A stretch of 51,206 nucleotides of DNA from Bacteroidales bacterium (lineage in GTDB: Bacteria > Bacteroidota > Bacteroidia > Bacteroidales > WCHB1-69), in NCBI GenBank assembly GCA_017544105.1, contig JAFYEU010000031.1:1-51206 (forward strand), written 5' to 3'. Below, one piece after another: positions 12,192 through 29,825 of the stretch. Numbering within the stretch: the stretch's first letter is position 1; each line of letters starts with the position of its first letter. The position numbers were made by a program, and so were the translations under genes. The notes below the pieces were generated by a model. It worked only from the letters and a program-made list of their open reading frames with translations, ran no database searches and had not been told where the DNA came from.

Positions 12192-12261
12192 AGCGTGATT
12201 TTTATAGTATGATGCAAAACTTTTGAAAGGGGCAAAATTATTAAATATTCATCGTTTTTTG

Positions 12262-12269
12262 TATCTTTG
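12262..12269 (+). promoter_or_regulatory. -7 box (TATCTTTG) for the hutH operon; a divergent TAATTTTG box at 12233-12240 (minus) serves the ECF gene
   Basis: TAnnTTTG matches in both directions in the 12192-12313 intergenic region. Confidence 0.55.
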
Positions 12270-12313
12270 CCCGCTTATTATCTTTAGGAGTATAATATCA
12301 AAATATCATCTAT

Positions 12314-13810: not shown

Positions 13811-13819
13811 TCTGTCACG

Positions 13820-14314: not shown

Positions 14315-15162
14315 ACATCGACGAACATATTCGGCAACTGATCGCCATGTCTCTGGCTGAAGATATCGGCAACGGAGACCATTCCTCCCTTTCCTGCATT
14401 GATGCGGGGGCGCAAGGGGAGATGAAACTGCTGGTCAAGCAAGACGGCATCCTCTGCGGTGTGGACGTGGCCGCGGAGATCGCCCGTCAGGTGGATGCGC
14501 GGATCACGATGGAGCGCTTCATGGACGACGGAGCCCAGATCAAAAAGGGCGACATCGTCTTTATCCTGCGCGGACCCGCCCAGAAGATGCTCACCGCTGA
14601 GCGCACCATCCTCAACTATATGCAACGGATGAGCGGCATCGCCACCACCACCCATGCCTACGTGGAGATGGTGAAAGGCACCGGCGTGACCCTGCTCGAT
14701 ACCCGTAAGACCACCCCCAATATGCGCTACTTTGAGAAATATGCCGTCAAGACCGGTGGGGCTGAAAACCATCGCATTGGCCTTTTCGACATGATCATGC
14801 TCAAAGACAACCATATTGACTTTGCCGGCAGCATCGAGAAGGCTATTGATCTGGCAAACAACTACCTTCAGACCCATCACATGGATCTTAAGATAGAGGT
14901 GGAGACCCGCTCCCTCGAGGATGTACGACGGGTGATGGAGCATGGTGGAGTGCACCGGATTATGTTCGACAACTTCACGCCCGAGATGATAAAGGAGGGC
15001 GTCAAGATGGTCAATCACAAATACGAAACAGAAGCTTCCGGTGGCATCACCGATGAGACCCTTCGCGACTATGCCGCCACCGGTGTGGACTTTATCTCTG
15101 TGGGCGCTTTCACCCATCATATCAGCAGCCTCGACTTGAGTCTGAAGACTATCATCCTATAA
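14311..15162 (+). CDS. nadC: Nicotinate-nucleotide pyrophosphorylase (carboxylating)
   Basis: AERTILN, SGIAT, DTRKT, HRIGLFD, KDNH, IEVE, DNF, EASGGI. Confidence 0.95.
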   Translation: MNIDEHIRQLIAMSLAEDIGNGDHSSLSCIDAGAQGEMKLLVKQDGILCGVDVAAEIARQVDARITMERFMDDGAQIKKGDIVFILRGPAQKMLTAERTILNYMQRMSGIATTTHAYVEMVKGTGVTLLDTRKTTPNMRYFEKYAVKTGGAENHRIGLFDMIMLKDNHIDFAGSIEKAIDLANNYLQTHHMDLKIEVETRSLEDVRRVMEHGGVHRIMFDNFTPEMIKEGVKMVNHKYETEASGGITDETLRDYAATGVDFISVGAFTHHISSLDLSLKTIIL

Positions 15163-15224
15163 GCCTATGAACGATGCGGCATAACGACTACTCATCCCCA
15201 GAAAAACCTTTGCGATAATCGCCT

Positions 15225-16214
15225 ATGCTCTTGGATTTTAAGAAGATAAGTGATCAAATCCATGCGTGGAGCGAGGATATGGAACAGATTCCGGTACTCG
15301 GCAAGCTGATCCGTAAGTCCAAGACGCTCACGTTACCGGGCTTTCAGAAGATGCCCCTCTATGACGTGATGCGCTTCTTCATGCAGTCGCTCGGCAAGGG
15401 GGTTGTCTTCCAACGCGCCGCCGCCATGACGTACCGCATCTTCGTGGCCCTGATCCCCATCATCATAGGACTCTTCACGGTGGTGGCCTATCTGGGCGAA
15501 GGCATCCAGCTGACTCTGATCGATTTTCTGGAGTCGGCAGTCCCTACCTACGTGTGGCCCGCCATCCAGAATATGATCACCGAGGTGATTACCCGCCAAT
15601 ATGGGGCCCTGACCTCCGTGATGTTCGTAATCGGCATTTACTTTACCATCTTGCTGATTAACTCCATGTTGGTAGCCATGAACACCTCCTACTTCAACGA
15701 CGCACGCCGTAGTCTATGGAAACAGATCCTGCTAAGCGTGATGATCATGCTGATCGCCTTCGGGGTCATCCTCGTGGTGATTGCCCTGTTTATTGCCGCC
15801 TCTCTGATTATGAAGTACGTGCATACCCATATCTTCGGCACCAATACGGGCTATTTCCTAACTGTCCATGGTATCAAGTGGATCCTGACGTATGCTGCTA
15901 TATACTTCTTGATCAGTGTATTATACTATTTGGCCCCCGTGGAGAAATCGAACTACCGCTTCTTCTCGGCCGGCTCCTCCTTGGCAACCATCTCCATGGT
16001 GATCCTGCTGTGGATACTGAATGTCTATTTCTCCAATTTCTCCAACTATAACCTGATCTATGGGTCTTTGGGTGCTATCTTTGCCGTCTTGTTGTGGATC
16101 AACTGGAGTTGTATTATCTTTCTGGTAGGCTATGAACTGAACGTTAGTATTGCCCGGGCGAAGGTGGAAATTATAGACCAACATTCCTCTAAAGAAAATG
16201 TAAATGTAACATAA
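15225..16214 (+). CDS. YihY/virulence factor BrkB family membrane protein
   Basis: RAAAMTY..F, multiple TM helices, YNLIYGSLGAIFAVLLW..G.ELN. Confidence 0.88.
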   Translation: MLLDFKKISDQIHAWSEDMEQIPVLGKLIRKSKTLTLPGFQKMPLYDVMRFFMQSLGKGVVFQRAAAMTYRIFVALIPIIIGLFTVVAYLGEGIQLTLIDFLESAVPTYVWPAIQNMITEVITRQYGALTSVMFVIGIYFTILLINSMLVAMNTSYFNDARRSLWKQILLSVMIMLIAFGVILVVIALFIAASLIMKYVHTHIFGTNTGYFLTVHGIKWILTYAAIYFLISVLYYLAPVEKSNYRFFSAGSSLATISMVILLWILNVYFSNFSNYNLIYGSLGAIFAVLLWINWSCIIFLVGYELNVSIARAKVEIIDQHSSKENVNVT

Positions 16215-16235
16215 TTATATATACAATAATAAGAT

Positions 16236-16649
16236 ATGAAAGACATACTCATATTCCTTGCCGTGATGGCGCTTTCGCTGATACCGACGCTCTTGAAATC
16301 CCTCAAAGAGAGCAATGACAAGAATGCGCAAAAGCCCGCTCCGAAGGTCAAGCCGGACCCCTATTTCCCCGATGCCGACCAGGCGCCGAGGCCCCGGTAT
16401 GCGACAAGCAGACCAACGGTGTAAGGCTCTGCGAATGACGATTACTTCACTTATGAGACGGTTGAGGATCCTCAGTCACGAAGGACAGCCTCGGATCAAG
16501 GATCGCAAAAACCGTCCGCTCCGGAAGCACCCGCATCCCGCATGGAAATCAAACAAGAAGGAAAGCCAAAAGTCGAACTTTCTTTGGAAGAAGAGGAAAT
16601 TTATAAAGGTATCATCTATTCTGAAATTTTAAAAAGAAAATATATATAG
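16236..16649 (+). pseudogene. Small N-terminally anchored membrane protein interrupted by in-frame TAA (16422-16424)
   Basis: After the stop the same frame stays open for 74 codons (GSANDDYFTYETVED...EEEIYKGIIYSEILKRKYI*). It ends in an IIxSEILxRKY-type motif that I recall from Bacteroidales hypothetical proteins. Confidence 0.7.
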
Positions 16650-16770
16650 TTGAAAGATAGGGTTTTGAAATAAAATCAAAAACTTGTTGGTTGCATTAAT
16701 AAATTTCTTATTTTAGCCCCCTCCAAAATAGTATGCAAAAAAGTTTAATGTTTAATATAAAAAAAAGGCT

Positions 16771-19700
16771 ATGATTAAAAAATTACTCTTAACTCTTGGA
16801 GTGATCCTTCTTTTCACAACCATGGCATTTTCACAGACTTCCACCATTAAAGGTGTGGTCAAGGACCAAACTGGAGAGCCCTTGGCCTACACTTATGTCT
16901 ATTTGATGACAGGTGACAAGAATGTGAACTACTCTATGACGGATGAAAAAGGAGAGTATCAGATTTTCGGTGTTGAAGTCGGTACTTACGACATGCTTGC
17001 CGATGCAGAAATGACCTGCAAAAAGAAACAGAAAATCGCCAACGTCCAAGTCCCGTCCGGACAGGTCGTGTTCATCGACTTTTCCATTGACTGTGCGGGT
17101 GAGCTTGACATTGTCGATATCGTTTACGAACCGCAAGTGTTTGATGTCGGTAGCACCTCATCTTCCACCCGTATCACAGGTGAAAACCTGCGTACCACCC
17201 CCGGTCGTTCCGTGACTGGCGCCTTGTCCGCTTTGGAAGGTGTAACCGGTATTGACGGTTCTATGAGCTCTGTCCGTGGTAACCGTTCCGATGGTCAGAA
17301 AACCATCGTCGATGGTGTGACCATCCGAGGTAGCAGCAGCGTCTCCATGTCTTCTATTGAGGAAGCCCAGTTGATCCAGGGCGGTATCCCGGCTGAGTAT
17401 GGTGACGGTACCTCCTTCACGGTCATTACCACCAAGTCGGCTCCTCGTGACTTCCACGGTTCCCTTGAGTTGCGTGGCTCCATCGATGGCTACAACAACT
17501 TCCTGGGTGCTGTTTCCCTTTCCGGTCCTATCTTGAAGGGCAAGAAGAAAACAGATCCTGCCCGTATCGGCTTCCTCTTCAGTGGTGAGGTTTCTTATGA
17601 CCATGACGCCTCTCCTGCCCGTGGCGGTACTTGGATGGCCAATGACGATGTGATCGAATATTTGATTCAAAATCCCTTGCGTTACAGTAATACTGAATAT
17701 GGTGCCCAATATCAAGAGGCCTGCTACCTGACCAGCGAGTCCTTCCACAAGGAGCGTGTCAGAAAGAATGCCGGCACTTGGGATTACCTCGGACAGTTGA
17801 AGTTCGACTTCATGTTGGGTAAAACCCACAACATGAAACTCTCCCTCGGCGGTTCCTATGAGTACGCCAAAGGCAAATCCTGGAGCACTACCCAAGCATT
17901 GTTCAACAATGCCAACAACCCGACTTCCGAGCAGTCCACCATGCGTTTCAACGCCCGTTTGAACCACCGTGCTTTCACGGATACTTCCACCACGGCTGTG
18001 TTGAAGAACATCATGTACGACATCAACGTCAACTACACCCGTATCAATGGTCGTTCCTATGCCACCGAGCATAAAGACAGATTGTTCGAATACGGTTATA
18101 TCGGAAAGTTCGAGACCCAGAAGACTAGAAGCTACACCTTTGTGGATGAGTTGACTTTGCCTGGTGACAGTCTCACTGGCCCCATTGATTTGTACGATGT
18201 GTATGAATTCAACGGTTGGTATGACTCTGTCGTGACTTTCAGCGTCAATCCTAATTTCAACGTCAACCCTATCCTCTCCCAATATACTCTTAACTTCGTA
18301 AACCAATTCCCTGTCGAGGATATCTATCGTAACTTCTACGAGGGCTTCCCGTATGACCTGACCCTGTATCAGACCTTTGGCGCTCTGCGTAACGGTGACC
18401 AGCCCAGCTCTGTATATTCCATGTATCAGTCTCCGGGCGTTGTCTATAATGGTTACAGCAAGTCCCAAACCGAGCAGTTTGGTGTGAAGGCCAGCATCTC
18501 CATGGCTCTCAAGAACCATGAGTTGAAGTTCGGTTATGACTTCGAAAAACTGACTTACCGTGGCTACGGTATCGGACCGGTCGGTCTCTGGACCCTCATG
18601 AGAAACGAGGCCAACTATCATATCTCTGAGTTGGATAAGGACAATCCTATCATTTGGAATAACGGTGAAAGCTTCTATGTGGATTACAACCGTTTGGTCA
18701 GCCTCAACGACCAGACCGCTTTCGACCGCAACCTCCGTACCTCTTTGGGCTTGAACCCTGATGGCGACGATTGGTTGGATATCGACAGCTATGACCCGAA
18801 TGTCTTCAGCGTGGATATGTTCTCCGCCGAAGAGCTCCTGCTTGGTACCTCTTCCGGTGAAAGCCCAATGGTCAGCTACTATGGTTATGACTATACTGGC
18901 AAGATCAACAAGAAGAAAACTACGATTGACGACTTCTTCAACGGTATTGGCAGCGATGGTGAGAAGACCTACTCCATCGGAGCTTACGAGCCGGTTTATA
19001 TGGCCTTCTATCTCCAGGATAAGTTCTCCATCAGAAGCTTGCTCTTCAACATCGGTTTGCGTGTTGACCGTTTCGACGCTAACCAGTCCGTGTTGAAAGA
19101 CCCCTACCTCTTCCGCGAAGCCTACACAGTTAAAGATATCCGCAACCTGAATAGCAACATCAACTTCGTCGGCAATGCCGAAGACAACTGGGTTGTTTAC
19201 TATCAAGGTTCCGACACCTACATGAGCGAAGCCGACATCCAAGGCGATGTGTTCAACAGCTCCTCCATCATCGGTTATCGTAATGGAGACACCTGGTACA
19301 ACGCTGCCGGTCAAGAGGTCACTGACCCTGAGGCTCAGCTCTCCCTCTACGTAAACGGTCCTATCTTGAAGAATGAGATCGACCTGATCAACTCCATCAC
19401 CAAGGTGGAATCCTCCGCCTTCACCGATTACAAGGCACAATGGTCTGTCATGCCTCGTATCTCCTTCTCCTTCAACGTGAACGACAACTCCTTGTTCTAC
19501 GCTCACTATAACATCATCACTTCTCGTCCTACCAACCTGCAGATTTCTCCGGTGGACTACCTCTTCATCTCCAAGAGAAACTCCGCTAGCGATATTATCT
19601 CCAACCCGAACATGAAACCGCAACAGAGTATCGACTATGAAATCGGTTTCCGTCAGAAAGTTGGTAACAAGTCTGCTATCGGTATCAGCGCTTACTATTC

Positions 19701-20565
19701 TGAGAAACGTAATCAGATCCAAGCTTACCGCTTCTCCGGTGCTTATCCGAACACCTATTATTCTTATCAGAACATTGACTTCGGTACGGTTCAAGGTTTC
19801 ACCTTCTCTTACAGAATGAACAGAACGAAGAATCTGACCCTTTCTGCTAACTACACGTTGCAGTTTGCCAAAGGTACGGGTTCCGGTAGTACTTCTCAGT
19901 TGAACATTCTGGCCGCTGGTCAGCCTAACTTGAGAACCCTGACGAACCTCTCCTTCGACCAAAGACACAGAATTGGTGTGAACTTGGACTATCGTTTCGA
20001 CGCCGGTACTGCTTATGACGGCCCGAAAGGCAAGAAGACCATCATGGGTGCCGATGGCACTCCGACCACCAAAGAGATCCAATGGTTGGCCAACACCGGT
20101 TTCTCCTTGCTCTTCACCGCTGCTTCCGGTACTCCTTACACACGTTCCAGCACTCCGTACTCCACGATCGTAGGCGGTACTTCTTCCCGCCTCGCCGGTA
20201 CTATCAACGGTTCCAACACGCCGTGGCAGTTCCAGGCTGACTTCCGTATCGACAAGACCTTCATGTTCACCTTCAACAAGAACGCCAAGGATGCCGATGG
20301 CAATGCCAAGAAGACGAAACCTGGTTACCTGACTATCTACGTGGATATCCAGAACCTCTTCAACTTCAAGAACGTGATTTCCGTGTATGACTACACCGGC
20401 AACCCGGATGATGATGGATACCTCTCTGCCGCTGAATATCAGCAGGCTATTAACAGCCAGGTATATGTTGACTCCTATATCAACTACTACTTGATGCGTG
20501 TTAAGAATCCATACAACTATAGCCGTCCTATCCGTGCAAGTTTAGGTATTCAATTTTCTTTCTAA
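16771..20565 (+). CDS. Large TonB-dependent receptor-like OM protein with N-terminal carboxypeptidase-regulatory-like domain
   Basis: Signal peptide; TIKGVVKDQTGEPLAY...TDEKGEY N-domain; plug SVRGNRSDGQKTIVDG...IQGGIPAEYGD; barrel motifs FYLQDKF, NIGLRVDRFD, MPRISFSF, NPNMKPQQSIDYEIG, NLFN; C-terminal LGIQFSF. Confidence 0.88.
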   Translation: MIKKLLLTLGVILLFTTMAFSQTSTIKGVVKDQTGEPLAYTYVYLMTGDKNVNYSMTDEKGEYQIFGVEVGTYDMLADAEMTCKKKQKIANVQVPSGQVVFIDFSIDCAGELDIVDIVYEPQVFDVGSTSSSTRITGENLRTTPGRSVTGALSALEGVTGIDGSMSSVRGNRSDGQKTIVDGVTIRGSSSVSMSSIEEAQLIQGGIPAEYGDGTSFTVITTKSAPRDFHGSLELRGSIDGYNNFLGAVSLSGPILKGKKKTDPARIGFLFSGEVSYDHDASPARGGTWMANDDVIEYLIQNPLRYSNTEYGAQYQEACYLTSESFHKERVRKNAGTWDYLGQLKFDFMLGKTHNMKLSLGGSYEYAKGKSWSTTQALFNNANNPTSEQSTMRFNARLNHRAFTDTSTTAVLKNIMYDINVNYTRINGRSYATEHKDRLFEYGYIGKFETQKTRSYTFVDELTLPGDSLTGPIDLYDVYEFNGWYDSVVTFSVNPNFNVNPILSQYTLNFVNQFPVEDIYRNFYEGFPYDLTLYQTFGALRNGDQPSSVYSMYQSPGVVYNGYSKSQTEQFGVKASISMALKNHELKFGYDFEKLTYRGYGIGPVGLWTLMRNEANYHISELDKDNPIIWNNGESFYVDYNRLVSLNDQTAFDRNLRTSLGLNPDGDDWLDIDSYDPNVFSVDMFSAEELLLGTSSGESPMVSYYGYDYTGKINKKKTTIDDFFNGIGSDGEKTYSIGAYEPVYMAFYLQDKFSIRSLLFNIGLRVDRFDANQSVLKDPYLFREAYTVKDIRNLNSNINFVGNAEDNWVVYYQGSDTYMSEADIQGDVFNSSSIIGYRNGDTWYNAAGQEVTDPEAQLSLYVNGPILKNEIDLINSITKVESSAFTDYKAQWSVMPRISFSFNVNDNSLFYAHYNIITSRPTNLQISPVDYLFISKRNSASDIISNPNMKPQQSIDYEIGFRQKVGNKSAIGISAYYSEKRNQIQAYRFSGAYPNTYYSYQNIDFGTVQGFTFSYRMNRTKNLTLSANYTLQFAKGTGSGSTSQLNILAAGQPNLRTLTNLSFDQRHRIGVNLDYRFDAGTAYDGPKGKKTIMGADGTPTTKEIQWLANTGFSLLFTAASGTPYTRSSTPYSTIVGGTSSRLAGTINGSNTPWQFQADFRIDKTFMFTFNKNAKDADGNAKKTKPGYLTIYVDIQNLFNFKNVISVYDYTGNPDDDGYLSAAEYQQAINSQVYVDSYINYYLMRVKNPYNYSRPIRASLGIQFSF

Positions 20566-20591
20566 CATCATAAGAAATAAATATAGCAACA

Positions 20592-23500
20592 ATGAAAAAT
20601 ATAATCAAAGTTCTCAGTTTGACACTCCTTCTGGTTTGTATGGTGTTTAACACCATGCAGGCTGAGAAATACAAAGGAGACACAAGGAAATCTTCTGCAC
20701 CCAAGGACGAGTCAGCTACCTGTCTTCCGGCTAGTAGCTCCAACGAACTTACGGTGAACAACGTACGTGCGTACATTGAGACCGGCGGTACCATGTGGTT
20801 TAAAGAGACTGCTGAATATGAGGTTCCTATCGGATCTGGTAAGACCTCCATGTTCTCAGCCGGTCTGTGGATTGGTGGTTATGATGTCAATGGTATGTTG
20901 AAGTTGGCCGCCGTCCGTTTCAGACAAGTCGGTGACGACTATTGGCCCGGCCCCTTGAAAATTACAGGTGCCAGTACCACACAGTCTGAATGTCTTAAAT
21001 TTGACAAGCACTTCAGAATCACTCGTGCCGAGGTTGACCAGCATATTAGCGGTTATAATACCTCCGGTTATGTGATGCCTGCTGACATTGCCAACTATCC
21101 TGCTCATGGCGACGAGGGTTATTCATACTATCTCGCCCCCTTTAAGGATGTGAACGAAAATGGCGAGTACGATCCTGAAAATGGTGACTATCCGTACTAT
21201 GATGTCAACAATGACCTCTGCCCCTGGACCGAGGATAACCTTGCCCTCGCTGCCCAGCACGCTCTTCCCAGAACTCCTGAAGATTTGATGTATTATGGTC
21301 CCGATTGGCACAACTCCAACGGTATGATCTATGCCGACCATGTGCTCAAAGGCGATGAGACCCTCTACTGGATTTTCAACGATAACGCCGGCCCTCACAC
21401 CGAGTCCCAAGGTGCTCCCATCGGTCTGGAAATCCGTGGCCAGTGCTTCGGCTTCTCCACCAACGATGATTTGAACAACATGACGTTCTATTCCTATGAG
21501 ATTATCAACCGTTCTACCTATACCCTGACCAACACCTTCTTCTCCCAGTGGGTTGACCCTGATTTGGGTTATGCTAACGATGACTATATCGGTTGCGATG
21601 TGGGTCGTGGTTTGGGCTACTGCTACAATGGTTCCAACGTGGATGGTACCGGCCAAATCTGGGCTTATGGTGACCAACCCCCTGCGGTAGGTGTGGACTT
21701 CTTCCAAGGTCCCTACATGGATCCCGATAACCGTGACAACCCCAAATTCCATGCTGACAGCGCCCAATACGCTGGCTATTGCGACAAGTTCCTCAAGAGC
21801 CAGTATGAATTGGACCAGATGGCTATCAATGGCGTGAACTTCGGCGATAGCATTATCGATAACGAGCGTTTCGGTATGAGAAGATTCGTTTATCATGATA
21901 ACTCTGACGCTTACAATGGTGACCCGAGAGTGGCTTTCGAGTATTACAACTATTTGAGAGGTATCTGGCGTGATAACACTAAGATGCGTTACGGCGGCAA
22001 CGCTCACCAATCCACTGGTGGTAACGGTCCTGAGTGCGACTTCATGTTCCCTGCTCTCACCGACGTTTGTAACTGGGGTACCCAAGGCGTGGATCCTAAT
22101 CCCACCCAATACGGTGCTGAAGGCTGGACCGAAGCTAACGTGAACAACCAACCTTATGACCGTCGTTTCCTCGAGTCTGCTGGTCCGTTCACCTTGAAAC
22201 CTGGTGCCGTTAACTACATTACCGTTGGTATTCCTTGGGCACGTGCTACCCAAGGCGGTGCATGGGCTTCTGTGGAACTCCTGAAGGTGGCCGATGACAA
22301 GTGCCAATCCCTCTTCGAGAACTGCTTCAAGACCCTGGATGGTCCCGATGCTCCTGATGTCACGATCCGCGAGCTCGAGAATGAGTTGATCATCTACCTC
22401 TCCAATGATGACAAGAACAGCAACAACTATCACGAGACCTATGAGGAGCTTGATCCGCAAATCCAGAAGACGATCGAGACTATCACTTTGGTTGAGGCCC
22501 TCGACTCTATTCAAACTTATACATCTAATGGCGAAGACACGACCATTTATTTCACCACTTCTCACAATGAAACTAGAATCGACACCCTCTCCCAAGAGGA
22601 TCGTTCCTATAAGTTTGAAGGTTATCAAATCTATCAATTGTCCTCCGCTTCTGTCAGCGTTACCGACCTCGGCGATGCCAGCAAGGCTATCCTGATTGCC
22701 CAATGCGACATCAAGAACGGTGCTGGACAACTTGTCAACTGGATTTACAACGACGCTATCGGAAGCTCCGTTGCTACCGAGATGGTGAACGGCGGCGATG
22801 AAGGTATCTCTCACTCTTTCCGTGTGACGGAAGACAAGTTTGCCACGGGTACCAATAAGAACCTGGTGAACCACAAAGAGTACTACTTCCTCGTCTTGGC
22901 ATACGGTTACAACCAGTACAAAGAATTCAGCATGGATGCCGATCACTTGGACGGTCAAATGACTCCGTATCTTGCCGGTCGTCGTAACATCCATACCTAC
23001 ACGGCTATTCCTCACAAACCGGTTGAGCAACTTCTCAATGCCAACTATGGCGACCAGCCTATGATCACCCGTATTGAGGGTCAGGGCAACGGCGGTTTCT
23101 TCTTGGATCTGACCGATGAGTCTGTGGAGAAGATTCTGGCTAACAACGTTTACAATGAGGTACAATATAAGAATAACTATGGTCCTCTGAACATTAAGGT
23201 CGTGGATCCGTTGAAGGTGAAACCTTTTGACTACACGATTAAGTTGTTACCGAACGAGACTTCCAATGACGTGAATGACGATACTGAATGGCAACTGATC
23301 ATCTCTGACGAAGTTTCTGATGAAGAGTTGGCTGAAATGGGTCTCGAAAGAGTGACTACCGCTGCCATGCCAATCAGTATGACCAACGAAGAGCTCTTCT
23401 TGGATCTGGGTATCTCCATCGCCATTATCAATGACAACTTCAAGATTTATCAGAAAGATTTGGATGATTATGTGAAGGGTCTGCCCGCAGGCTATTCCTA

Positions 23501-25298
23501 TGCTAACCTCTCCAAATATGCTCAGGTGGATGCCGTTGGTTCATCTATCGAATATGATGGTGACGATGTATGGCTCTCCGGTGTTGCTGACATGGAAGGT
23601 GACTATCCTGCCAACTGGATTCACGCCGGACAGCAAGCTTCCGCTGCTTGGCATGATGCTCCTCCCACACAGGAAGGTGCCGAGGCTAACTATATGAAAT
23701 GGCGTTCTGAAGACTTTTTCATTGTCATGCCACAAGGTACCTTGAACGAAAATTGGAAAACCAGAGGATTCTCTGATCCTAACCAGCAATTCGAGAGTAT
23801 GGTGAATGGATTATGGTCTCCGTATGTGCTGTCATCCCCGTATGATGGCGGTCCTAAGGCTAAATACTTCCAAGCTGATGACCAATATATCGAAGATAAG
23901 AATGGTCCTGCTAACGCTGCTTTCGTATTCCAGGATATTGCCACAACCCCTGCCAATCCTGGTTACAATCAGACCTTGACCAACCTCTATTCTGTTGATA
24001 TCGTCCTCACTCCTGATACTAACCTCTGGTCCAGAGCTTTGGTACTTGAGTCTGGTAGTAGCGCTTCTGCCGACAACTACTATGTGGATCAACATTTCAA
24101 CGGTCAGACCTACAAGAACCTGCGTCATGAACCCAAGAAAGCTCCTTCTGTGGATAAGAATGGTAATCCTGACAATTCCGGCACTACTGGTTTCGGTTGG
24201 TTCCCGGGTTATGCCATCAACGTGGAGACGGGCGAGCGCTTGAACATCATGTTCGCTGAAAACTCCAATGATGAGTTGAACAATGGTAATGATATGCTCT
24301 TCAACCCGACCAACGTCTATGCCTATTACAAGAACCCGCAAACGGGTGAGTTGATCTTGGACGAGGTGACGGGTGAGCCTATCGCTATGGGCATTACGGC
24401 ATACAATAACTATCGTGAAGTCTATAGTGTTACCTTCGGTGAGCCTTTGAATGGCGGTCGTCACTATGTCTATGTTTGCAGCAGTTCCGGTAATACTTGT
24501 AGTATGTTCTACAGAAACTCTGCCAGACAGCGTAACTACAATGACAACGAGACTACTACTACCTCCAACAGCATTTCTCACGGTGGTTCCTTCGAGTACA
24601 ATGGTAGATACTATCCTTGGTACGAGTGCGGTGCTTACGATGGTTGCGAATGGCTGAACGCCAAGTTCAATCAGGTGAATAATTCCAGCTCGAATCTTAC
24701 CAACAGAGGTCGTCAGCAGCTCAAGATGCAGTTGTTCAACAACGTGATGTGGACCAGCATTCCAATGCCGGCCATGAATCAGGAGAGCAAATGGATGGCT
24801 TGCGATGCCAAGATCAAACTGCGTGTTTCCCGTCCGTACATGAGATATTCTTCCCGTTGGTACAATGATCCGGCTACGGCTCCTTATGCAAGCCAGAACG
24901 GCGGTTACCCGATGTACACCTTCACCACGAAGAACATCGCTCCTACCAAGATCGAGACTTCTGAAGAATTCCAGACTGTATTGGATGAGATCAACATTGT
25001 TCCCAACCCGTACTATGGATTCTCCAACTATGAGTCCACTGCTCTGGAGACCTACGTTCGCATAGTGAACCTCCCGGCCAAGTGTACTATCTCCATCTAC
25101 ACCGTTAACGGTACTCTGATTAGAACCCTTACGAAAGGTGATGCTTCAACTTCATTTGTTCAGTGGGATCTGAAGAACCATGCCAACATTCCGATCGCCA
25201 GCGGCGTGTATATCATCCACGTGAAGGCCGACGGTATTGGTGAGCGTACGCTCAAGTTCTTCTGCACGATGCGTCCTACCGACTTGAATGGTTTCTAA
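20592..25298 (+). CDS. Large secreted protein with T9SS type-A-like C-terminal domain, function unknown
   Basis: Signal peptide; Asn/Gly/Tyr/Asp-rich beta-type body; FN3-like segment (GPDAPDVTIRELENELIIYL...FEGYQIYQ...YYFLVLAY); CTD INIVPNPY...ISIYTVNGTLIRTL...WDLKN..ASGVYIIHV...TLKF. Confidence 0.85.
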   Translation: MKNIIKVLSLTLLLVCMVFNTMQAEKYKGDTRKSSAPKDESATCLPASSSNELTVNNVRAYIETGGTMWFKETAEYEVPIGSGKTSMFSAGLWIGGYDVNGMLKLAAVRFRQVGDDYWPGPLKITGASTTQSECLKFDKHFRITRAEVDQHISGYNTSGYVMPADIANYPAHGDEGYSYYLAPFKDVNENGEYDPENGDYPYYDVNNDLCPWTEDNLALAAQHALPRTPEDLMYYGPDWHNSNGMIYADHVLKGDETLYWIFNDNAGPHTESQGAPIGLEIRGQCFGFSTNDDLNNMTFYSYEIINRSTYTLTNTFFSQWVDPDLGYANDDYIGCDVGRGLGYCYNGSNVDGTGQIWAYGDQPPAVGVDFFQGPYMDPDNRDNPKFHADSAQYAGYCDKFLKSQYELDQMAINGVNFGDSIIDNERFGMRRFVYHDNSDAYNGDPRVAFEYYNYLRGIWRDNTKMRYGGNAHQSTGGNGPECDFMFPALTDVCNWGTQGVDPNPTQYGAEGWTEANVNNQPYDRRFLESAGPFTLKPGAVNYITVGIPWARATQGGAWASVELLKVADDKCQSLFENCFKTLDGPDAPDVTIRELENELIIYLSNDDKNSNNYHETYEELDPQIQKTIETITLVEALDSIQTYTSNGEDTTIYFTTSHNETRIDTLSQEDRSYKFEGYQIYQLSSASVSVTDLGDASKAILIAQCDIKNGAGQLVNWIYNDAIGSSVATEMVNGGDEGISHSFRVTEDKFATGTNKNLVNHKEYYFLVLAYGYNQYKEFSMDADHLDGQMTPYLAGRRNIHTYTAIPHKPVEQLLNANYGDQPMITRIEGQGNGGFFLDLTDESVEKILANNVYNEVQYKNNYGPLNIKVVDPLKVKPFDYTIKLLPNETSNDVNDDTEWQLIISDEVSDEELAEMGLERVTTAAMPISMTNEELFLDLGISIAIINDNFKIYQKDLDDYVKGLPAGYSYANLSKYAQVDAVGSSIEYDGDDVWLSGVADMEGDYPANWIHAGQQASAAWHDAPPTQEGAEANYMKWRSEDFFIVMPQGTLNENWKTRGFSDPNQQFESMVNGLWSPYVLSSPYDGGPKAKYFQADDQYIEDKNGPANAAFVFQDIATTPANPGYNQTLTNLYSVDIVLTPDTNLWSRALVLESGSSASADNYYVDQHFNGQTYKNLRHEPKKAPSVDKNGNPDNSGTTGFGWFPGYAINVETGERLNIMFAENSNDELNNGNDMLFNPTNVYAYYKNPQTGELILDEVTGEPIAMGITAYNNYREVYSVTFGEPLNGGRHYVYVCSSSGNTCSMFYRNSARQRNYNDNETTTTSNSISHGGSFEYNGRYYPWYECGAYDGCEWLNAKFNQVNNSSSNLTNRGRQQLKMQLFNNVMWTSIPMPAMNQESKWMACDAKIKLRVSRPYMRYSSRWYNDPATAPYASQNGGYPMYTFTTKNIAPTKIETSEEFQTVLDEINIVPNPYYGFSNYESTALETYVRIVNLPAKCTISIYTVNGTLIRTLTKGDASTSFVQWDLKNHANIPIASGVYIIHVKADGIGERTLKFFCTMRPTDLNGF

Positions 25299-25328
25299 AA
25301 TTATTAATACCGTAAAACTGTCAAGAAT

Positions 25329-26513
25329 ATGAAAAACTTATATAAATCATTAATAATTTGCACATTAGTTGCTCTTATATCTGTCAGTACGTCCTATAAC
25401 GTACTGGCAGGTAACAGAGACCGTTCCGGCCAGGCTGGCGCTTCCCATCTTATGATTGACCCGTGGGCTCACACCAGTGGCTTTGCCAATGCAGGTGTGG
25501 CCGAGATCCGCGGTCTTGAATCCGTCTATTCTAATGTTGCCGGCCTCTCTTTCGTCAAGAAAACGGAGTTTGCCTTCAACCGTACCCAATATCTCGTTGG
25601 TTCCAACTGCGGTATCAACATCAATGCCATGGCATTTGCCCAACACCTGGGCCGTGCCAAAGATTTTGGTACGATAGGTCTCTCTTTCTTCTCTATGGGT
25701 TTTGGTGATATCGAGCGTACGACCGTCGGTCAGCCTGAAGGTGGTCTGGGTACTTTCAGTCCTAGCCTTACCTATATCGGTATCCACTATGCCAAGAAGT
25801 TCAACCACTTCATCCAAGGTGGTGCTACGGTCAAGATTATCAATGAAAGCATTTCCGATGCTCATGCCATGGGCTTCGCCATCGATGCCGGTATCCAATA
25901 TACGGCTGGTGCTTTCGATAACTTCAGAATTGGTGTCACCTTGAAGAACATCGGTCTCCCCATGAGCTATAAGGGTGACGGTCTTGCTGCCAGAGGTGTA
26001 GCAGTAGGTACAAGCTTTGAGCAGACCCTCCAATCCCGTTCTGCTGAATTCGAAATGCCTTCCCTGTTGACGGTGGGTGTTTCCTATGACTTCCTCTTCT
26101 TCGGAGGCGAGTATGCAGAGATGTCCAAGGATGACAGAAAAGAGATGGGTCTCACCCGTGACGAGGCTATGCACAGAATCACCCTGATGGGTGCTTTCAC
26201 CGCCAACTCTTATTCTCGCGATATCTTTGCCGTAGGTCTTGAATACGCTTTCATGAATTACTTCATGGTTCGTGGTGGCTATTCTCTGGAAAGCTTCACC
26301 AAGAAGACCTCTACCGATTATACTACTAATGAGGTGGTCTCCACGATTCTCGTCAATGGTGACTCCTTCTTCTTGGGACCTTCTGTCGGTGCTACCGCAG
26401 TTATTCCTTTGAAGAAAGGCAACACCGGCGCCAGAATCTATCTCGACTACGCCTACCGCTTCACCAGCAAATGGCGTGGCAACCACTTGATGGGTATCAA
26501 GATTACTTTGTAA
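25329..26513 (+). CDS. PorV/PorQ-family (FadL-like) outer-membrane barrel
   Basis: GASHLMIDPWAHTSGFANAGVA...SVYSNVAGL resembles the PorV N-terminal motif; GATVKII, FAIDAG, IGVTLKNIG, VGLEY, VRGGY, LDYAY strands. Confidence 0.82.
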   Translation: MKNLYKSLIICTLVALISVSTSYNVLAGNRDRSGQAGASHLMIDPWAHTSGFANAGVAEIRGLESVYSNVAGLSFVKKTEFAFNRTQYLVGSNCGININAMAFAQHLGRAKDFGTIGLSFFSMGFGDIERTTVGQPEGGLGTFSPSLTYIGIHYAKKFNHFIQGGATVKIINESISDAHAMGFAIDAGIQYTAGAFDNFRIGVTLKNIGLPMSYKGDGLAARGVAVGTSFEQTLQSRSAEFEMPSLLTVGVSYDFLFFGGEYAEMSKDDRKEMGLTRDEAMHRITLMGAFTANSYSRDIFAVGLEYAFMNYFMVRGGYSLESFTKKTSTDYTTNEVVSTILVNGDSFFLGPSVGATAVIPLKKGNTGARIYLDYAYRFTSKWRGNHLMGIKITL

Positions 26514-26538
26514 AACCAATTATTCTTTTATATCAAAA

Positions 26539-26568
26539 AAAGAAGAGGCTGTAAAAGGCCTCTTCTTT
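26539..26568 (+). terminator. Rho-independent terminator closing the TBDR-cargo-PorV operon
   Basis: aaagaagaggc-tgtaaaag-gcctcttcttt: 11-bp perfect stem with A-rich 5' and T-rich 3' flanks. Confidence 0.8.
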
Positions 26569-26588
26569 GTGTAATATTAATTCAAAAA

Positions 26589-27062
26589 ATGGAAGACATT
26601 AAATACTATACTCAAGAAGGCTTGGATGCTTTGAAACAAGAACTCGTTCAACTCGAATCCGTTGAGCGGCCTAGAATTTCACAGGCCATCGCTGAGGCCC
26701 GCGACAAGGGCGATCTCTCTGAGAACGCCGAATATGATGCAGCAAAAGAGGCTCAAGGTCTGCTCGAACTCAAAATAGCCAACCTCCGGAACCTTATCGC
26801 GAAAGCCCGTATCATCGATGAGTCCAAAATCGACATCAGCAAGGTGCTGATTTACTCTATTGTGACGGTACGGAACGTGAAGACTAAGGCGCAGATGACC
26901 TATACCATCGTGCCGGAGTCTGAATCCGATCTCAAGGCTGGAAAGATCTCCGTATCCAGTCCGCTGGCAAAAGCCCTGATCGGCAATGCCAAGGGCGATG
27001 TTGTCACCATGCAGGCCCCCGCAGGCGCCATGGATTTTGAAATTTTAGATGTTTCCCGTTAA
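26589..27062 (+). CDS. greA: Transcription elongation factor GreA
   Basis: EARDKGDLSENAEYDAAKE; GKISVSSPLAKALIG. Confidence 0.96.
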   Translation: MEDIKYYTQEGLDALKQELVQLESVERPRISQAIAEARDKGDLSENAEYDAAKEAQGLLELKIANLRNLIAKARIIDESKIDISKVLIYSIVTVRNVKTKAQMTYTIVPESESDLKAGKISVSSPLAKALIGNAKGDVVTMQAPAGAMDFEILDVSR

Positions 27063-27079
27063 TTATAATTCCTTCAAAG

Positions 27080-27481
27080 ATGGAAGAGACTATTTTCACT
27101 AAGATCGTCAAAGGGGAAATCCCCTGTTACAAAATCGCAGAAGATGAGCATTTCTTCGCTTTTTTGGATATCTCCCCGATTGCCAAAGGCCATACGCTGG
27201 TCATCACTAAACTCCAGAACGATTACATCTTTGACCTGCCCGACGACCTGCTCGGCAAGATGATGGTGTTCGCCAAGAAGGTTGCCCGCGGCATCGAGAA
27301 GGCCATCCCCTGCAAGAGGATCGGTGTTGCCGTGATCGGCATCGACGTGCCCCACAACCATATCCATCTGGTTCCCATCAATGGCGTTGGTGACCTCGAC
27401 TTCAAGGGGGAGCGTGTGCAGCTGACGAAAGAGGAGTTTGCCGATATTGCCCAGAAGATCTCCGCTTCAATAGAATTTTAA
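27080..27481 (+). CDS. HIT family nucleotide hydrolase
   Basis: IFTKIVKGEIP, AFLDISP..KGHTLV, VPHNHIHLVP (HxHxH). Confidence 0.92.
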   Translation: MEETIFTKIVKGEIPCYKIAEDEHFFAFLDISPIAKGHTLVITKLQNDYIFDLPDDLLGKMMVFAKKVARGIEKAIPCKRIGVAVIGIDVPHNHIHLVPINGVGDLDFKGERVQLTKEEFADIAQKISASIEF

Positions 27482-27500
27482 CATTCAACATATCAACATT

Positions 27501-28343
27501 ATGGAAATTAAAGAATTAGAATCCATTGCGGCTCAAGTCCGCAGAGATATCATCCGGATGGTACATGGTGCCCAGTCCGGTCACCCGGGCGGCTCATTAG
27601 GCTGTGCAGACTTTATGACTGCGCTCTATTTTGAGATCATGAACATCCATCCCGAAGCATTTGCCCAAGACGGTGCTGGCGAGGACATGTTCTTCCTCTC
27701 CAACGGCCATATTTCACCCCTCTTGTATAGCGTGATGGCTCGCAGGGGATACTTCCCGGTTTCAGAGCTCTCCACCTTCCGCAAGCTGCACACCCGCCTT
27801 CAAGGCCATCCCACGCCCGTGGAGGGCCTTCCCGGTGTCCGTGTGGCTTCCGGCTCCCTAGGACAGGGCGTTTCCGTGGCCATCGGCGCTGCTCTGGCCA
27901 AAAAGGCTAACCAAGACCCTAACCTGGTCTTCGCGCTCACCGGCGACGGCGAATTGGAAGAGGGCCAGATGTGGGAAGCCTTCATGTTCGCCCCGAACAA
28001 CAAAGTGGATAACCTCATCGTCACAATCGATTATAACGGCAAGCAAATCGACGGTCCTGTGGACTCTGTCAACAGCCTCGGCAACCTGCGTGCCAAACTG
28101 GAGTCCTTCAACTGGCTGGTGCTGGATATGAATGGTAACGACATGAAGTCCTGTGTGATGACGCTGAAGCTGGCCAAGAAGCTAGCCCGCAAAGGGAAAT
28201 CCATCGCTATCATCATGAAGACCGAGATGGGACAAGGAGTTGACTTTATGATGGGCACTCACAAATGGCACGGCACCCCGCCCAACGATGAGCAGGCTGC
28301 CGCCGCTCTCGCCCAGCTCCCTGTGACGCTCGGAGATTACTAA
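27501..28343 (+). CDS. Transketolase, N-terminal (TPP-binding) subunit
   Basis: SGHPGGSL, LSNGH, LQGHP, GSLGQG, GDGELEEG...N; 280 aa. Confidence 0.9.
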   Translation: MEIKELESIAAQVRRDIIRMVHGAQSGHPGGSLGCADFMTALYFEIMNIHPEAFAQDGAGEDMFFLSNGHISPLLYSVMARRGYFPVSELSTFRKLHTRLQGHPTPVEGLPGVRVASGSLGQGVSVAIGAALAKKANQDPNLVFALTGDGELEEGQMWEAFMFAPNNKVDNLIVTIDYNGKQIDGPVDSVNSLGNLRAKLESFNWLVLDMNGNDMKSCVMTLKLAKKLARKGKSIAIIMKTEMGQGVDFMMGTHKWHGTPPNDEQAAAALAQLPVTLGDY

Positions 28344-28358
28344 TCTAATGGTCCGACT

Positions 28359-29825
28359 GTGAAGATTATAGACCGTTATCTGTGCAAGAACTTCTTGGGC
28401 CCCTTTGTCCTGACATTCTTCGTGGCCCTCTTCGTCCTCTTGATGCAGTTTTTGTGGAAGTGGGTCGATGAGCTTGTGGGTAAGGGTCTTGAGGTGGGCG
28501 TCCTCTTGAAGCTGCTCTTCTACGCCTCTATCACCCTGTCCTCCATGGCCTTCCCGTTGGCTGTGCTGTTGGCTTCCCTGATGACCTTCGGTAACATGGG
28601 TGAACGGTCCGAGATAGTGGCGCTCAAGTCGGCGGGCATCTCTACTCGGCGGATGATGATGCCCTTGGCTATCATGGCCACCCTGATCGGCGGCCTGGCC
28701 TTCGAGGTATCCAATGATATCATCCCACGCGCCTCCGTCAAGCTGAGGATGCTGCTCTTCGACATCCAAGAGCAAAAACCTGCCCTCAATATCACAGAAG
28801 GGGTCTTCTATACCGATATCGACAACTACGCCATCCGCGTGGGCAAGAAAATGCCTGATGGGGTGACCATCAAGGATATTCTCATCTATGACCATTCCAA
28901 AAGGCAAGGGAACATCAGTGTGACCAGCGCCGAAGAGGGTACGATGGTGGTGACTCCCGATAAGCATTACCTGCTCTTCACGCTCTATAACGGGTCCACA
29001 TGGGACGAATCATCCATTACGCGTGGCTCTTACGATACCAAGGTCCATTATCCCTTGATGCGCACCACCTTCAGCAAGCAGTATAAACGCTTCGACATGT
29101 CGGACTTCTCCGCTCAGAATGTGGATGCCAGCTTCTACGAGAACCACTCCACCGCCCTGTCCATCAGTCAGCTGAATGACAAGATAGATACGGCCAAGCA
29201 TTATATCCAAACGCAGAATATGAATGCGGCGGAAGTCTTCTTCGGCTGTCTCTATTTCTTCAACCAGAAGGTGAAAGACAACAACAGCCTGGATACGGCC
29301 TCCTTGGAGCATCTGCGTAAGCCTGCCGACTATGGAGAGGAACTACAGGCACGGGTGCTGCAATTGGCTGAAAATGGGGCGCGGAACACCTCCTATGCGA
29401 TCAATTACAACTTCCAGGATGTGAATTTCCGCACTCACCAAATGTGGAACTATCAGATAGAGTTCTATCGCAAGTTCACGCTCGCCGTAGCTTGCCTGCT
29501 CTTTTTCTTCATTGGCGCCCCACTGGGCTCCATCATCCGCAAGGGTGGCATCGGCATCCCGTTGGTGATCACGGTGGTCTTCTTTACATTCTACTTCGCT
29601 ATTTCCATTATTGGCGAGAAATTGTCAAAAAGCAGCCCGCTGCCCGTCTGGTTCGGAATGTGGCTCTCCTCCATGGTCCTGCTGCCCATCTGCGTCTTCC
29701 TCACGTATCATGCTACCACAGACTCTTCAGTTCTCTCCCCCGATACGTATGCCAAATTTATCGAGAATTTTAAAAACTTGAAGATATTTAAGAAACGAAA
29801 TGAAAATACTGCAACTGTGTCATAA
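28359..29825 (+). CDS. LptF/LptG family LPS export permease
   Basis: MKIIDRYL, ERSEIVALKSAGIS, RKFTLAVACLLFFFIGAPLG..RKGG; GTG start. Confidence 0.88.
   Translation: MKIIDRYLCKNFLGPFVLTFFVALFVLLMQFLWKWVDELVGKGLEVGVLLKLLFYASITLSSMAFPLAVLLASLMTFGNMGERSEIVALKSAGISTRRMMMPLAIMATLIGGLAFEVSNDIIPRASVKLRMLLFDIQEQKPALNITEGVFYTDIDNYAIRVGKKMPDGVTIKDILIYDHSKRQGNISVTSAEEGTMVVTPDKHYLLFTLYNGSTWDESSITRGSYDTKVHYPLMRTTFSKQYKRFDMSDFSAQNVDASFYENHSTALSISQLNDKIDTAKHYIQTQNMNAAEVFFGCLYFFNQKVKDNNSLDTASLEHLRKPADYGEELQARVLQLAENGARNTSYAINYNFQDVNFRTHQMWNYQIEFYRKFTLAVACLLFFFIGAPLGSIIRKGGIGIPLVITVVFFTFYFAISIIGEKLSKSSPLPVWFGMWLSSMVLLPICVFLTYHATTDSSVLSPDTYAKFIENFKNLKIFKKRNENTATVS

Follow-up and report, generated by a model that had tools for sequence, protein, structure and literature searches.

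Several described outer-membrane systems bear on the locus analyzed here. In SusC/SusD (RagA/RagB), the gene for a TonB-dependent barrel whose N-terminus bears a CarboxypepD_reg-type domain lies beside the gene for a surface-exposed partner, and SusD itself is a TPR lipoprotein of ∼550 aa. In the PorQ–PorZ and PorV–PorU pairs of Porphyromonas gingivalis, a barrel of the PorV/PorQ family holds the uncleaved C-terminal domain (CTD) of one exported protein, and a review of type IX secretion proposes that cognate PorV-like barrels shield such domains from cleavage (PMC10202324). [quoted passage not shown] BtuB–BtuG and other pairs of a TonB-dependent transporter with a surface lipoprotein, like BamG–BamH, combine a barrel with a large extracellular protein cap, which in each case is a lipoprotein; in the BAM machinery of Bacteroidota, BamG, a barrel of FadL/PorV-like type, is described as binding a surface protein (PMC12578637). 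Finally, Oar of Myxococcus xanthus is reported to be a TonB-dependent transporter needed for secretion of the protease PopC (PMC6434023).

The window (the whole stretch of DNA analyzed, 51,206 nt) carries three adjacent genes on the plus strand, which we call T, C and V. T (16771–20565, 1264 aa) encodes a barrel resembling TonB-dependent receptors, C (20592–25298, 1568 aa) a β-rich secreted surface protein belonging to a large family without a name, and V (25329–26513, 394 aa) a barrel of the PorV/PorQ family. The ORF coordinates give gaps of 26 and 30 nt, as reported in the initial annotation, and both gaps have a GC content of about 23%. Given that full-length homologs number in the thousands, the frames of 1264 and 1568 aa are not products of chance. 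The region 16633–16770 on the plus strand is indeed the AT-rich leader that had been described (GC content 0.23 versus 0.52 for the window), and its composition and the starts of RNA contigs mark it as a probable promoter region. Contigs from RNA libraries X1 and X3, which belong to two studies, start at 16737 and 16735, approximately 35 nt upstream of the ATG of T, a weak hint at the transcript start. No Rfam family matches the leader, which thus contains no riboswitch. RNA-library contigs span the T–C junction in three runs from three studies and the C–V junction in one run; such contigs may stem from DNA carry-over and do not prove a single transcript. One operon comprising T, C and V is the best explanation of the layout.

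A hairpin with an 11-pair stem, five of the pairs being GC, is located at 26539–26568, 26 nt beyond the third stop codon. The hairpin claimed earlier is thus real. RNA contigs from X1 (25279–26626) and X4 (26309–27126) traverse it. A terminator scanner called the element on the minus strand owing to the longer T run on that side. On the plus strand only TTTGTG follows the stem, so that termination in this direction is plausible but not proven; the hairpin is likely a leaky or two-way terminator.

The assignment of the first gene to the TonB-dependent receptors is borne out by three domains above their Pfam cut-offs. T contains CarboxypepD_reg at residues 25–104 (39.2 bits, cut-off 32.3), Plug (PF07715) at residues 128–214 (26.1 bits, cut-off 23.9), covering profile positions 5–103 of 107, and TonB_dep_Rec_b-barrel (PF00593) at residues 886–1082 only (42.4 bits, cut-off 27). 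Among 91 aligned orthologs, the C-terminal residue F is invariant and the RG and DG motifs of the plug are conserved. Ahead of the plug, where a TonB box would be expected, residues 112–124 are moderately conserved, with Q122 present in at least 90% of orthologs, which falls short of establishing such a box. There are 12 Plug matches in the genome bin, and T (30.8 bits in the genome-wide search) is the only giant: its copy lies on contig C115 in a frame of 1284 aa, against frames of 721–854 aa for the remaining ten. At E ≤ 0.01, T has no match to the SusC/RagA NCBIfam model and matches only two weak generic models of TonB-dependent receptors.

C had been described as a large protein lacking a recognizable catalytic motif, and we found neither a Pfam family above cut-off nor a catalytic fold in it. 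The protein begins with a signal peptide, MKNI...TMQA/EK, read by eye only. AlphaFold2 models of residues 240–1250 and 1120–1568 have pLDDT values of 82.9 and 82.4, respectively, yet Foldseek returned no convincing match for the core; the best hits (E = 2.2e-3) are β-sandwich parts of GH94/GH116-type enzymes with an rmsd of 8–12 Å, and we recognized neither a ligand-binding or catalytic fold nor a binding site. The family is large: 5216 of 8000 scored candidates match at E ≤ 0.001, as do 6120 cluster representatives at 50% identity, and a sample of 301 high-quality Bacteroidota genomes includes 162 with a match. They are β-rich proteins of 1050–1700 aa with a Sec signal and a T9SS CTD but without a lipobox. 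Identity to C is 73–98% within the genus and 40–60% across the order.

The CTD-coding part of C (24987–25295, plus strand) corresponds approximately to residues 1466–1568, which are predicted to bind V. Over residues 1489–1548, the model TIGR04183 for T9SS type A sorting domains gives 20.5 bits (cut-off 23), and PF18962 is absent from the Pfam listing of C, in which the only entry is FlgD_ig at 19.1 bits (cut-off 27). The sequence thus does not show a strict type A domain, and the more cautious wording "type-A-like" chosen by the initial annotation is appropriate. Structure comparison of the model confirmed that the extreme C-terminus adopts, as predicted, the T9SS CTD β-sandwich fold, with Foldseek matches to PorZ (5m11, 1.1e-5), the CTD of NucA in the SprA complex (8glk_D, 7.8e-4), PorU (6za2, 1.7e-3) and again a substrate CTD in SprA complexes (2.0e-3). 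In addition, the profile of the C family matches the PorZ CTD at 9.5e-4, and the CTD part of a PorU model matches residues 1453–1546 of C at 7.8e-5. As judged from the alignment of 72 orthologs, the CTD is unusually conserved: within the last 200 aligned residues, seven columns are invariant and 15 more are nearly so. PorZ and PorU have the CTD folds nearest to that of C and both retain their CTDs; by analogy, the CTD of C would be retained in uncleaved form.

V and the C-terminal part of C (residues 1428–1568) were modeled as a complex, as had been suggested. The predicted interface has an ipSAE of 0.88 in all three runs, whereas the best of three controls reached 0.00; contact agreement is at least 90%, the partner pLDDT is 73–74 and the interface residues lie at C 1466–1563. 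Of 80 solved complexes, 58 attain the ipSAE mark, as do 2 of 110 mismatched pairs; these counts apply only approximately here because own alignments were used. The model may pass by memory of solved PorV–CTD complexes. Moreover, near relatives of the real partner can score equally well, so the result does not set V apart from the canonical PorV as the partner of C.

V scores 123 bits against the PorV/PorQ family model NF033709 (cut-off 90). We rejected it as PorV, PorQ or PorV2 proper, given scores far below the equivalog cut-offs (57.1 versus 250 bits for NF033710, 59.6 versus 220 for NF033711 and 44.7 versus 325 for NF052325, respectively) and the presence of all three elsewhere in the genome: PorV on contig C133 (486 bits), PorQ on C18 (331 bits) and PorV2 on C68 (478 bits). 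The profile of the V family retrieves PorV of F. johnsoniae (6h3i_F) at 1e-21, followed by TodX-type FadL barrels; no chain named BamG is among its six PDB matches. Other core T9SS components, SprA (2427 bits), PorU (1206) and GldM (308), also score above cut-off. V is therefore not the only or canonical PorV of this organism, as had been surmised, and the profile scores make it a fourth, putatively dedicated paralog of the PorV/PorQ family. The expectation that porV lies beside porU failed in this assembly, where contig C133 carries porV and contig C38 porU.

The idea that the triad is conserved and co-evolves held up well. Of 80 named Bacteroidales/Bacteroidota loci, 73 have T, C and V in the same order and on the same strand (median gaps 26 and 34 nt); in the remaining seven, a contig end interrupts the unit or the cargo gene is split. 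A phylum-wide set of 20 loci, taken from 19 genomes, includes 17 with the T-C-V arrangement, and the other three are extra cargo copies. FastTree phylogenies of T, C and V share the same deep split and paralog groups with SH-like support of 99–100, indicating that the module duplicates and diverges as a unit. The lengths of T and C covary (Spearman 0.60, n = 90), with the caveat that points from related sequences are non-independent. Five genomes of other classes contain two to six modules each, and 14 of 19 regions fetched from multi-module genomes are canonical (five are variant). In other classes, a GWxTD-domain protein is often encoded after the module.

The window's clade is single-copy, follows taxonomy and is sister to a paralog clade that has members in sugar loci. 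Upstream of the triad are hutH, nadC and a BrkB/YihY gene, and downstream are greA, a HIT gene, the N-terminal part of a transketolase gene and lptF/G; greA is downstream in 62 of 90 loci and the HIT gene in 58 of 90. With these housekeeping flanks, the window's triad adjoins no SusD, hydrolase or regulator, just as the initial annotation stated, and its neighbors include no inner-membrane transporter or sugar-related gene. The surroundings of paralogous modules are different. One locus of mannan type comprises genes for LacI, a CBM4_9 protein with a CTD, T, C, V, a sugar ABC binding protein and two permeases, two GH130 enzymes and a six-hairpin glycoside hydrolase, with a MalK-like ATPase gene nearby. 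Other paralog loci contain CBM9 with a CTD, a GntR-type sugar regulator and GHL10, or CBM4_9 with a CTD, or CBM20/DUF5689. Since the sugar loci belong to the sister paralog clade and not to orthologs, a function can be transferred to the window copy only by shared architecture.

The genome encodes TonB_C proteins, three of them above cut-off, and SusD (PF07980, PF14322) has no match anywhere in this 90%-complete genome. Paralogs in sugar loci and the absence of SusD from this genome lend indirect support to a role in uptake, and the substrate class suggested below is taken from the paralogous modules rather than from the window copy. In the phylum-wide draw, SprA is present in 161 of 162 cargo-positive genomes, including all 161 solid ones. 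Conversely, 76 of 237 SprA-positive genomes do not have the module, which is thus not a core part of the T9SS. Nor is it simply a replacement for SusD, because the two coexist in many genomes; of the 49 genomes of one family (f40), 48 have SusD and 35 have the cargo.

We propose, with a probability of roughly 0.6, that T, C and V form a SusD-independent uptake module with a T9SS-delivered surface component tethered by a cognate PorV paralog. C would be exported by Sec and then by the T9SS via its CTD. The uncleaved CTD would be held by V, a barrel dedicated to one cargo, as in PorQ–PorZ and PorV–PorU, and this tether would place the β-rich protein of ∼170 kDa on the cell surface. There, C would act as the partner of T, binding a large substrate, in the likeliest case an oligo- or polysaccharide, and handing it over to T for import powered by TonB and the proton-motive force. 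The proposal builds on the operon, the family assignments, conservation and co-diversification, the presence of T9SS and TonB, the CTD fold and the predicted V–CTD interface, all of them observed or computed; retention of the CTD, contact between C and T, the direction of import and the substrate class are what we infer. A broader and more tentative reading, which we hold with somewhat less than even confidence, is that T-C-V represents a second general nutrient-capture architecture in Bacteroidota and relatives, parallel to SusC/SusD: a three-protein, two-barrel complex in which the transporter lid is a giant, T9SS-delivered non-lipoprotein, tethered by its uncleaved CTD to a private PorV-type barrel.

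Our literature searches found no published description of the T-C-V module and, in agreement with the initial annotation, no functional characterization. Similarity to SusC/SusD extends to the presence of several copies per genome and to paralogs near regulators, CBM proteins, glycoside hydrolases and inner-membrane sugar importers. However, T does not match the SusC/RagA model, the gene next to it is C, with a T9SS CTD and no lipobox, in a genome without a detectable SusD, and T and C are always accompanied by the third gene, for the PorV-type barrel. Unlike PorQ–PorZ and PorV–PorU, V falls outside the equivalogs, C lacks peptidase C25 and PorZ-like domains, and the C–V pair is coupled to a TonB-dependent receptor. 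The module also differs from SprF/PorP barrels with their type B CTD adhesins, because V belongs to the PorV/PorQ family, the CTD is type-A-like and a TonB-dependent transporter is part of the unit.

C and V could instead form a T9SS-delivered, barrel-anchored complex of a non-nutritional kind (for instance in adhesion, as a surface-layer or envelope-maintenance protein, or in sensing contact), with which T is associated without importing anything captured by C. This is unlikely, although it would suit the single-copy, taxonomy-tracking window clade among housekeeping genes, the high conservation of C for a surface protein, its core without a recognized ligand-binding or catalytic fold and the GWxTD-domain proteins encoded next to the module in other classes. 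T retains the plug, barrel and C-terminal F of working transporters, sugar loci containing paralogs also encode ABC importers together with glycoside hydrolases or phosphorylases, and expansion into several diversified copies is characteristic of uptake systems.

It is still less probable that T works outward and helps to export or assemble C on the surface, with V receiving the CTD. Oar provides the precedent of a CarboxypepD_reg-bearing TonB-dependent transporter needed for protein secretion (PMC6434023), and by its description it resembles T as a large protein tied to one secreted protein; T and C invariably lie side by side and diversify together, and their lengths covary. Nevertheless, as described there, Oar involves no T9SS, CTD or PorV-like barrel and its proposed direction is export, whereas SprA is present in every solid cargo-positive genome of the draw and the CTD of C has the fold handled by SprA and PorV, which makes a second export route unnecessary. 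A folded β-rich protein of 170 kDa would hardly pass through a 22-strand barrel, and the sugar-locus context favors import. Mere inherited synteny, with T an ordinary transporter, C an ordinary substrate of the canonical PorV and V a spare paralog, is already disfavored and very improbable. The complex model cannot separate V from canonical PorV, but the three genes retain their order, strand and spacing from class to class amid completely changed flanks, and the same paralog groups recur in all three trees.

The cargo family makes up a large part of outer-membrane biology that has gone unannotated and is not the curiosity of one genome. If T, C and V indeed form a SusD-independent uptake module, TonB-dependent glycan import and type IX secretion, both hallmarks of the phylum, would be joined in one machine, and the idea of the cognate PorV-like barrel would extend from PorZ and PorU to a transporter subunit. 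Annotators could then spot utilization loci that are missed by SusD-based predictors of polysaccharide utilization loci, and the paralogs beside GH130 and sugar ABC genes in some organisms make the hypothesis directly testable. Should the broader reading of a second architecture hold, the T9SS would be a biogenesis route for transporter subunits, and the module would account for how SusD-poor lineages, this SusD-less gut Bacteroidales among them, forage on glycans.

The window is contig C139 of its genome bin (G000), which comprises 2.0 Mb in 145 contigs and is 90% complete with 3.6% contamination. Three open frames on the forward strand encode T, a 1264-aa TonB-dependent-receptor-like barrel (16771–20565), C, a 1568-aa protein with a type IX secretion system (T9SS) C-terminal domain (CTD; 20592–25298), which we refer to as the cargo, and V, a 394-aa PorV/PorQ-family barrel (25329–26513). 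The T–C and C–V gaps are 26 and 30 nt long with a GC content of about 23%, T is preceded by a 138-nt leader of 23% GC, and a hairpin of 11 pairs (26539–26568) lies 3' of V. The triad is flanked by housekeeping genes: hutH, nadC and a BrkB/YihY gene upstream, and greA, a HIT gene, the N-part of a transketolase, lptF/G and a glycosyltransferase downstream. A scan for leader RNAs and riboswitches returned none at E ≤ 1, its sole match being a chance one to a snoRNA model within C, and a sigma-70 promoter scan was uninformative (23 sites versus 17.3 ± 3.9 expected).

Contig C115 of the same bin (20.4 kb) is colinear over its entire length with window positions 12248–30268, at approximately 72% nucleotide identity. 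It holds a second copy of the whole locus, with triad proteins 71–74% identical to those of the window; it probably derives from a related species and was binned into G000, and does not represent a true duplication. Directly 5' of T lies a small gene (16236–16632, forward strand) whose product has an N-terminal membrane helix and ends in ...YSEILKRKYI. This gene carries an in-frame TAA at about 16422–16424 in the window and is intact in C115; 25 of 90 triad loci have a homologue of about 163 aa at −1. The window also contains, about 5 kb upstream, a 211-aa frame (11239–11874, reverse strand) that matches TonB_C weakly (21.3 bits; cut-off 24.6) and, at its start, a second TonB-dependent receptor of ordinary size (1076–3160, reverse strand; 694 aa, Plug 61 bits).

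At least 17 RNA-recorded runs contain part of the stretch. We compared four metatranscriptome runs from three studies (X1–X4) with the window, as assembled contigs in which DNA carry-over is possible and of which uncovered parts and depth were left uninterpreted. Contigs bridge the T–C junction in X1, X3 and X4 and the C–V junction in X3, and those of X1 and X4 cross the hairpin into greA. Contigs start at 16737 (X1) and 16735 (X3). Together, the contigs would agree with a single transcript that begins about 35 nt 5' of the ATG. An X4 contig has a 9-nt insertion at 16240, within the small gene 5' of T.

The CarboxypepD_reg, Plug and TonB-dependent-receptor barrel domains of T all score above Pfam cut-offs, its C-terminal residue is an invariant Phe, and it is not among the SusC/RagA model matches. 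The bin has 12 Plug matches, of which T and its C115 copy, with a frame of 1284 aa, are the only giants; the frames of the remaining ten span 721–854 aa. No Pfam family matches C above cut-off, and its orthologues have ordinary signal peptides with no lipobox in 40 N-termini read by eye. V passes the PorV/PorQ family model (123 bits, cut-off 90) and lies below the PorV, PorQ and PorV2 equivalog cut-offs by wide margins. A search of the PDB with single-sequence phmmer gave no match for T, C or V, whereas profiles did. We considered BamG as an identity for V and dropped it, because the profile of V hits PorV and the PDB matches listed include no BamG chain.

The bin encodes PorV (contig C133, 486 bits), PorQ (C18, 331 bits), PorV2 (C68:16896–17993, reverse strand, 478 bits), PorU (C38, 1206 bits), SprA (C24, 2427 bits) and GldM (C14, 308 bits), all above cut-off. 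Since PorV, PorQ and PorV2 are separate genes, V is a fourth paralogue; this supports the proposal that V is a dedicated barrel and not the only PorV of the genome, with canonical PorV and the core T9SS genes elsewhere in the bin. The usual placement of porV beside porU, cited in the initial annotation, does not apply to this assembly, where the two genes are not adjacent (C133 versus C38). PorV2 (NCBIfam ‘putative type IX sorting system protein PorV2’) adjoins deoC and an rRNA methyltransferase, a context that gives no clue to its cargo. Among control genomes, none of which matched SprA, Bacteroides thetaiotaomicron scores above the cut-off of the PorV/PorQ family model, so that PorV-family barrels occur outside T9SS-bearing genomes too; this match may be the BAM subunit BamG.

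We predicted structures with AF2 from an alignment of 55 rows and compared them using Foldseek. Residues 240–1250 of C are mostly beta (pLDDT 82.9, pTM 0.74) and have no match in the PDB at E ≤ 0.001; hence, no function can be read from the core. For residues 1120–1568 (pLDDT 82.4), the best matches all fall in the last ~100 residues and comprise PorZ (1.1e-5), the CTD of NucA bound in the SprA translocon (7.8e-4) and PorU (1.7e-3). The cargo family profile also matches the PorZ CTD (9.5e-4). Although C scores below threshold against the T9SS type A sorting domain (20.5 bits, cut-off 23), these matches agree with the initial description of its CTD as type-A-like. The last 200 residues of the family contain 7 invariant and 15 nearly invariant columns (72 sequences), more than is usual for a leader-like domain and in keeping with a conserved protein interface.

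A complex model of V with residues 1428–1568 of C scored 0.88 in each of three runs, compared to 0.00 for the best of three controls, with contacts agreeing by at least 90% between runs and a partner pLDDT of 73–74. Of 80 solved complexes and 110 mismatched pairs, 58 and 2, respectively, reach the pass mark; these counts are only rough because our own alignments were used. The model supports binding of the CTD of C by V; since PorV–CTD complexes have already been solved, the pass may reflect memory of a similar complex. Thus, pairing of the PorV-like barrel with the CTD is predicted as proposed, but the model does not separate V from canonical PorV.

The cargo family is very large: at E ≤ 0.001 it takes in 5216 of 8000 scored candidates (the best 120 mostly full-length) and 6120 cluster representatives at 50% identity, 1074 of them at 1e-30 or better. 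Within the genus, the cargo was found in all 18 genomes and, beyond it, in 5 of 12 families from the same order. Among 301 genomes drawn evenly across the phylum, with a minimum completeness of 90%, 162 have a match, and the weak ones among these matches may be partial. SprA is present in 237 of the 301 and, when the two tables are compared, in 161 of the 162 cargo-positive genomes; the lone exception, from family f33, which lacks SprA, has only a weak cargo match (E 8.9e-4). Since 76 SprA-positive genomes are without the cargo, the module draws on the T9SS as an accessory and does not belong to its core.

Scanning species-representative genomes yielded at least 599 stretches matching the cargo, and the 80 loci kept come nearly all from uncultured Bacteroidales/Bacteroidota bins, including Lentimicrobiaceae and Prolixibacteraceae. 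T, C and V have the same order and strand in 73 of these 80 loci (contig ends truncate five of the other seven, and the cargo is split in the remaining two) and form the triad in 17 of 20 regions from 19 genomes across the phylum, the other three being extra cargo copies. The triad is therefore conserved, as the initial annotation had suggested. Its flanking genes are not kept between distant lineages: greA lies 3' of the triad in 62 of 90 loci, four distant loci (L049, L054, L055 and L057; five genes) have in its place a protein with a GWxTD domain (PF20094) of unknown function, and in distant lineages another CTD (Por_Secre_tail) protein of ~600 aa is often found 5'. The single GWxTD protein of G000 sits elsewhere (C49:6069–6413), and the term GWxTD retrieved zero papers. 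Some genomes of the genus (G009:C81, G017:C47 and C68, G014:C44) encode a second cargo-like protein of ~1330–1360 or 2661 aa, in which the matching segments are reordered (825–1450, then 49–203, then 253–569), which suggests a domain-permuted paralogue. Atlas searches added only generic names and a few tentative taxon leads (Fidelibacterota, Rhodothermota, Cloacimonadota and Ignavibacteriota).

A search with the V profile detected numerous full-length copies in five genomes from other classes, each with two to six modules. The 19 regions around these copies include 14 canonical T–C–V modules and five variants, in which T adjoins V and a shorter CTD protein lies upstream. FastTree phylogenies of T, C and V (SH-like supports only, midpoint root, two long cargo branches flagged) show the same deep split, with the window and a monophyletic group of the same class in one clade and the expanded paralogues in the other. 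The paralogue groups are identical across all three trees, with supports of 99–100, so the three genes duplicate and diverge as one unit. The window copy belongs to the single-copy, taxonomy-tracking clade and is therefore not orthologous to any expanded paralogue.

The neighbours of the paralogous modules are those expected for glycan uptake. In genome G113, the gene order is a LacI regulator, a CBM4_9+CTD protein, T, C, V, a sugar ABC binding protein, two permeases, an unknown protein, two GH130 phosphorylases and a six-hairpin glycoside hydrolase, with a MalK-like ATPase nearby; for such a paralogue beside GH130 and sugar ABC genes, the cognate glycan is predicted to be beta-mannan or manno-oligosaccharides. 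Other modules are accompanied by CBM9+CTD, a GntR-type sugar regulator and GHL10, by CBM4_9+CTD upstream and a SurA-like PPIase downstream, or by CBM20/DUF5689 downstream. Next to several modules lies a SurA-like protein with PPIase domains of the PPIC type, upstream at L149, L156, L160, L162 and L165 and downstream at L161 and L164; the assignment is Pfam-confirmed at L156, L161 and L164 and, at the other four, deduced from how large the adjacent frame is and where it lies. This neighbour may be a chaperone that connects the modules to the biogenesis of barrels or of the T9SS.

G000 encodes three TonB_C proteins above cut-off. SusD (PF07980, PF14322) was not found in the bin, which at 90% completeness means ‘not found’ and not ‘absent’. 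In the phylum draw, 164 of 301 genomes have SusD, often alongside the module. Cargo-rich but SusD-poor families are f32, f34, f37, f41 and f43, with the reverse in f19–f22 and f27; strict complementarity was rejected, as both co-occur in f40, f30, f23, f35, f38 and f39.

The best-supported reading is that the module is a SusD-independent uptake system. C would be exported via Sec and then the T9SS, V would hold its uncleaved CTD so that C stays at the surface, as PorQ does with PorZ, and C would hand substrate to T for import powered by TonB. Fold, family, genome content and the complex model point to the export and tethering steps, while gene linkage, co-diversification and paralogue context suggest that C may feed T. 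The main rival is a non-nutritional surface complex, which would suit the housekeeping setting of the window's triad, the single-copy vertical inheritance of its clade and a C without recognisable binding fold; the glycan-uptake neighbours belong to the expanded paralogues. T might instead have an Oar-like role in export, or the linkage of the three genes might be mere synteny; both are much less likely.

The module resembles SusC/SusD in layout and context but differs in being without SusD and in T having no SusC-model match. Its anchoring would resemble that of PorQ–PorZ, but V fails the PorV, PorQ and PorV2 equivalogs and C is without the domains of PorZ and PorU. The module therefore belongs to neither system. 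We found no published description of the triad in full-text literature outside subscription journals and supplements, where the term ‘PorV PorQ family’ likewise retrieved nothing. Cognate PorV-like barrels shielding CTDs have already been proposed in a review (PMC10202324). The new element is that a CTD protein and its cognate PorV-like barrel are coupled to a TonB-dependent transporter, in a unit that is conserved and can expand.
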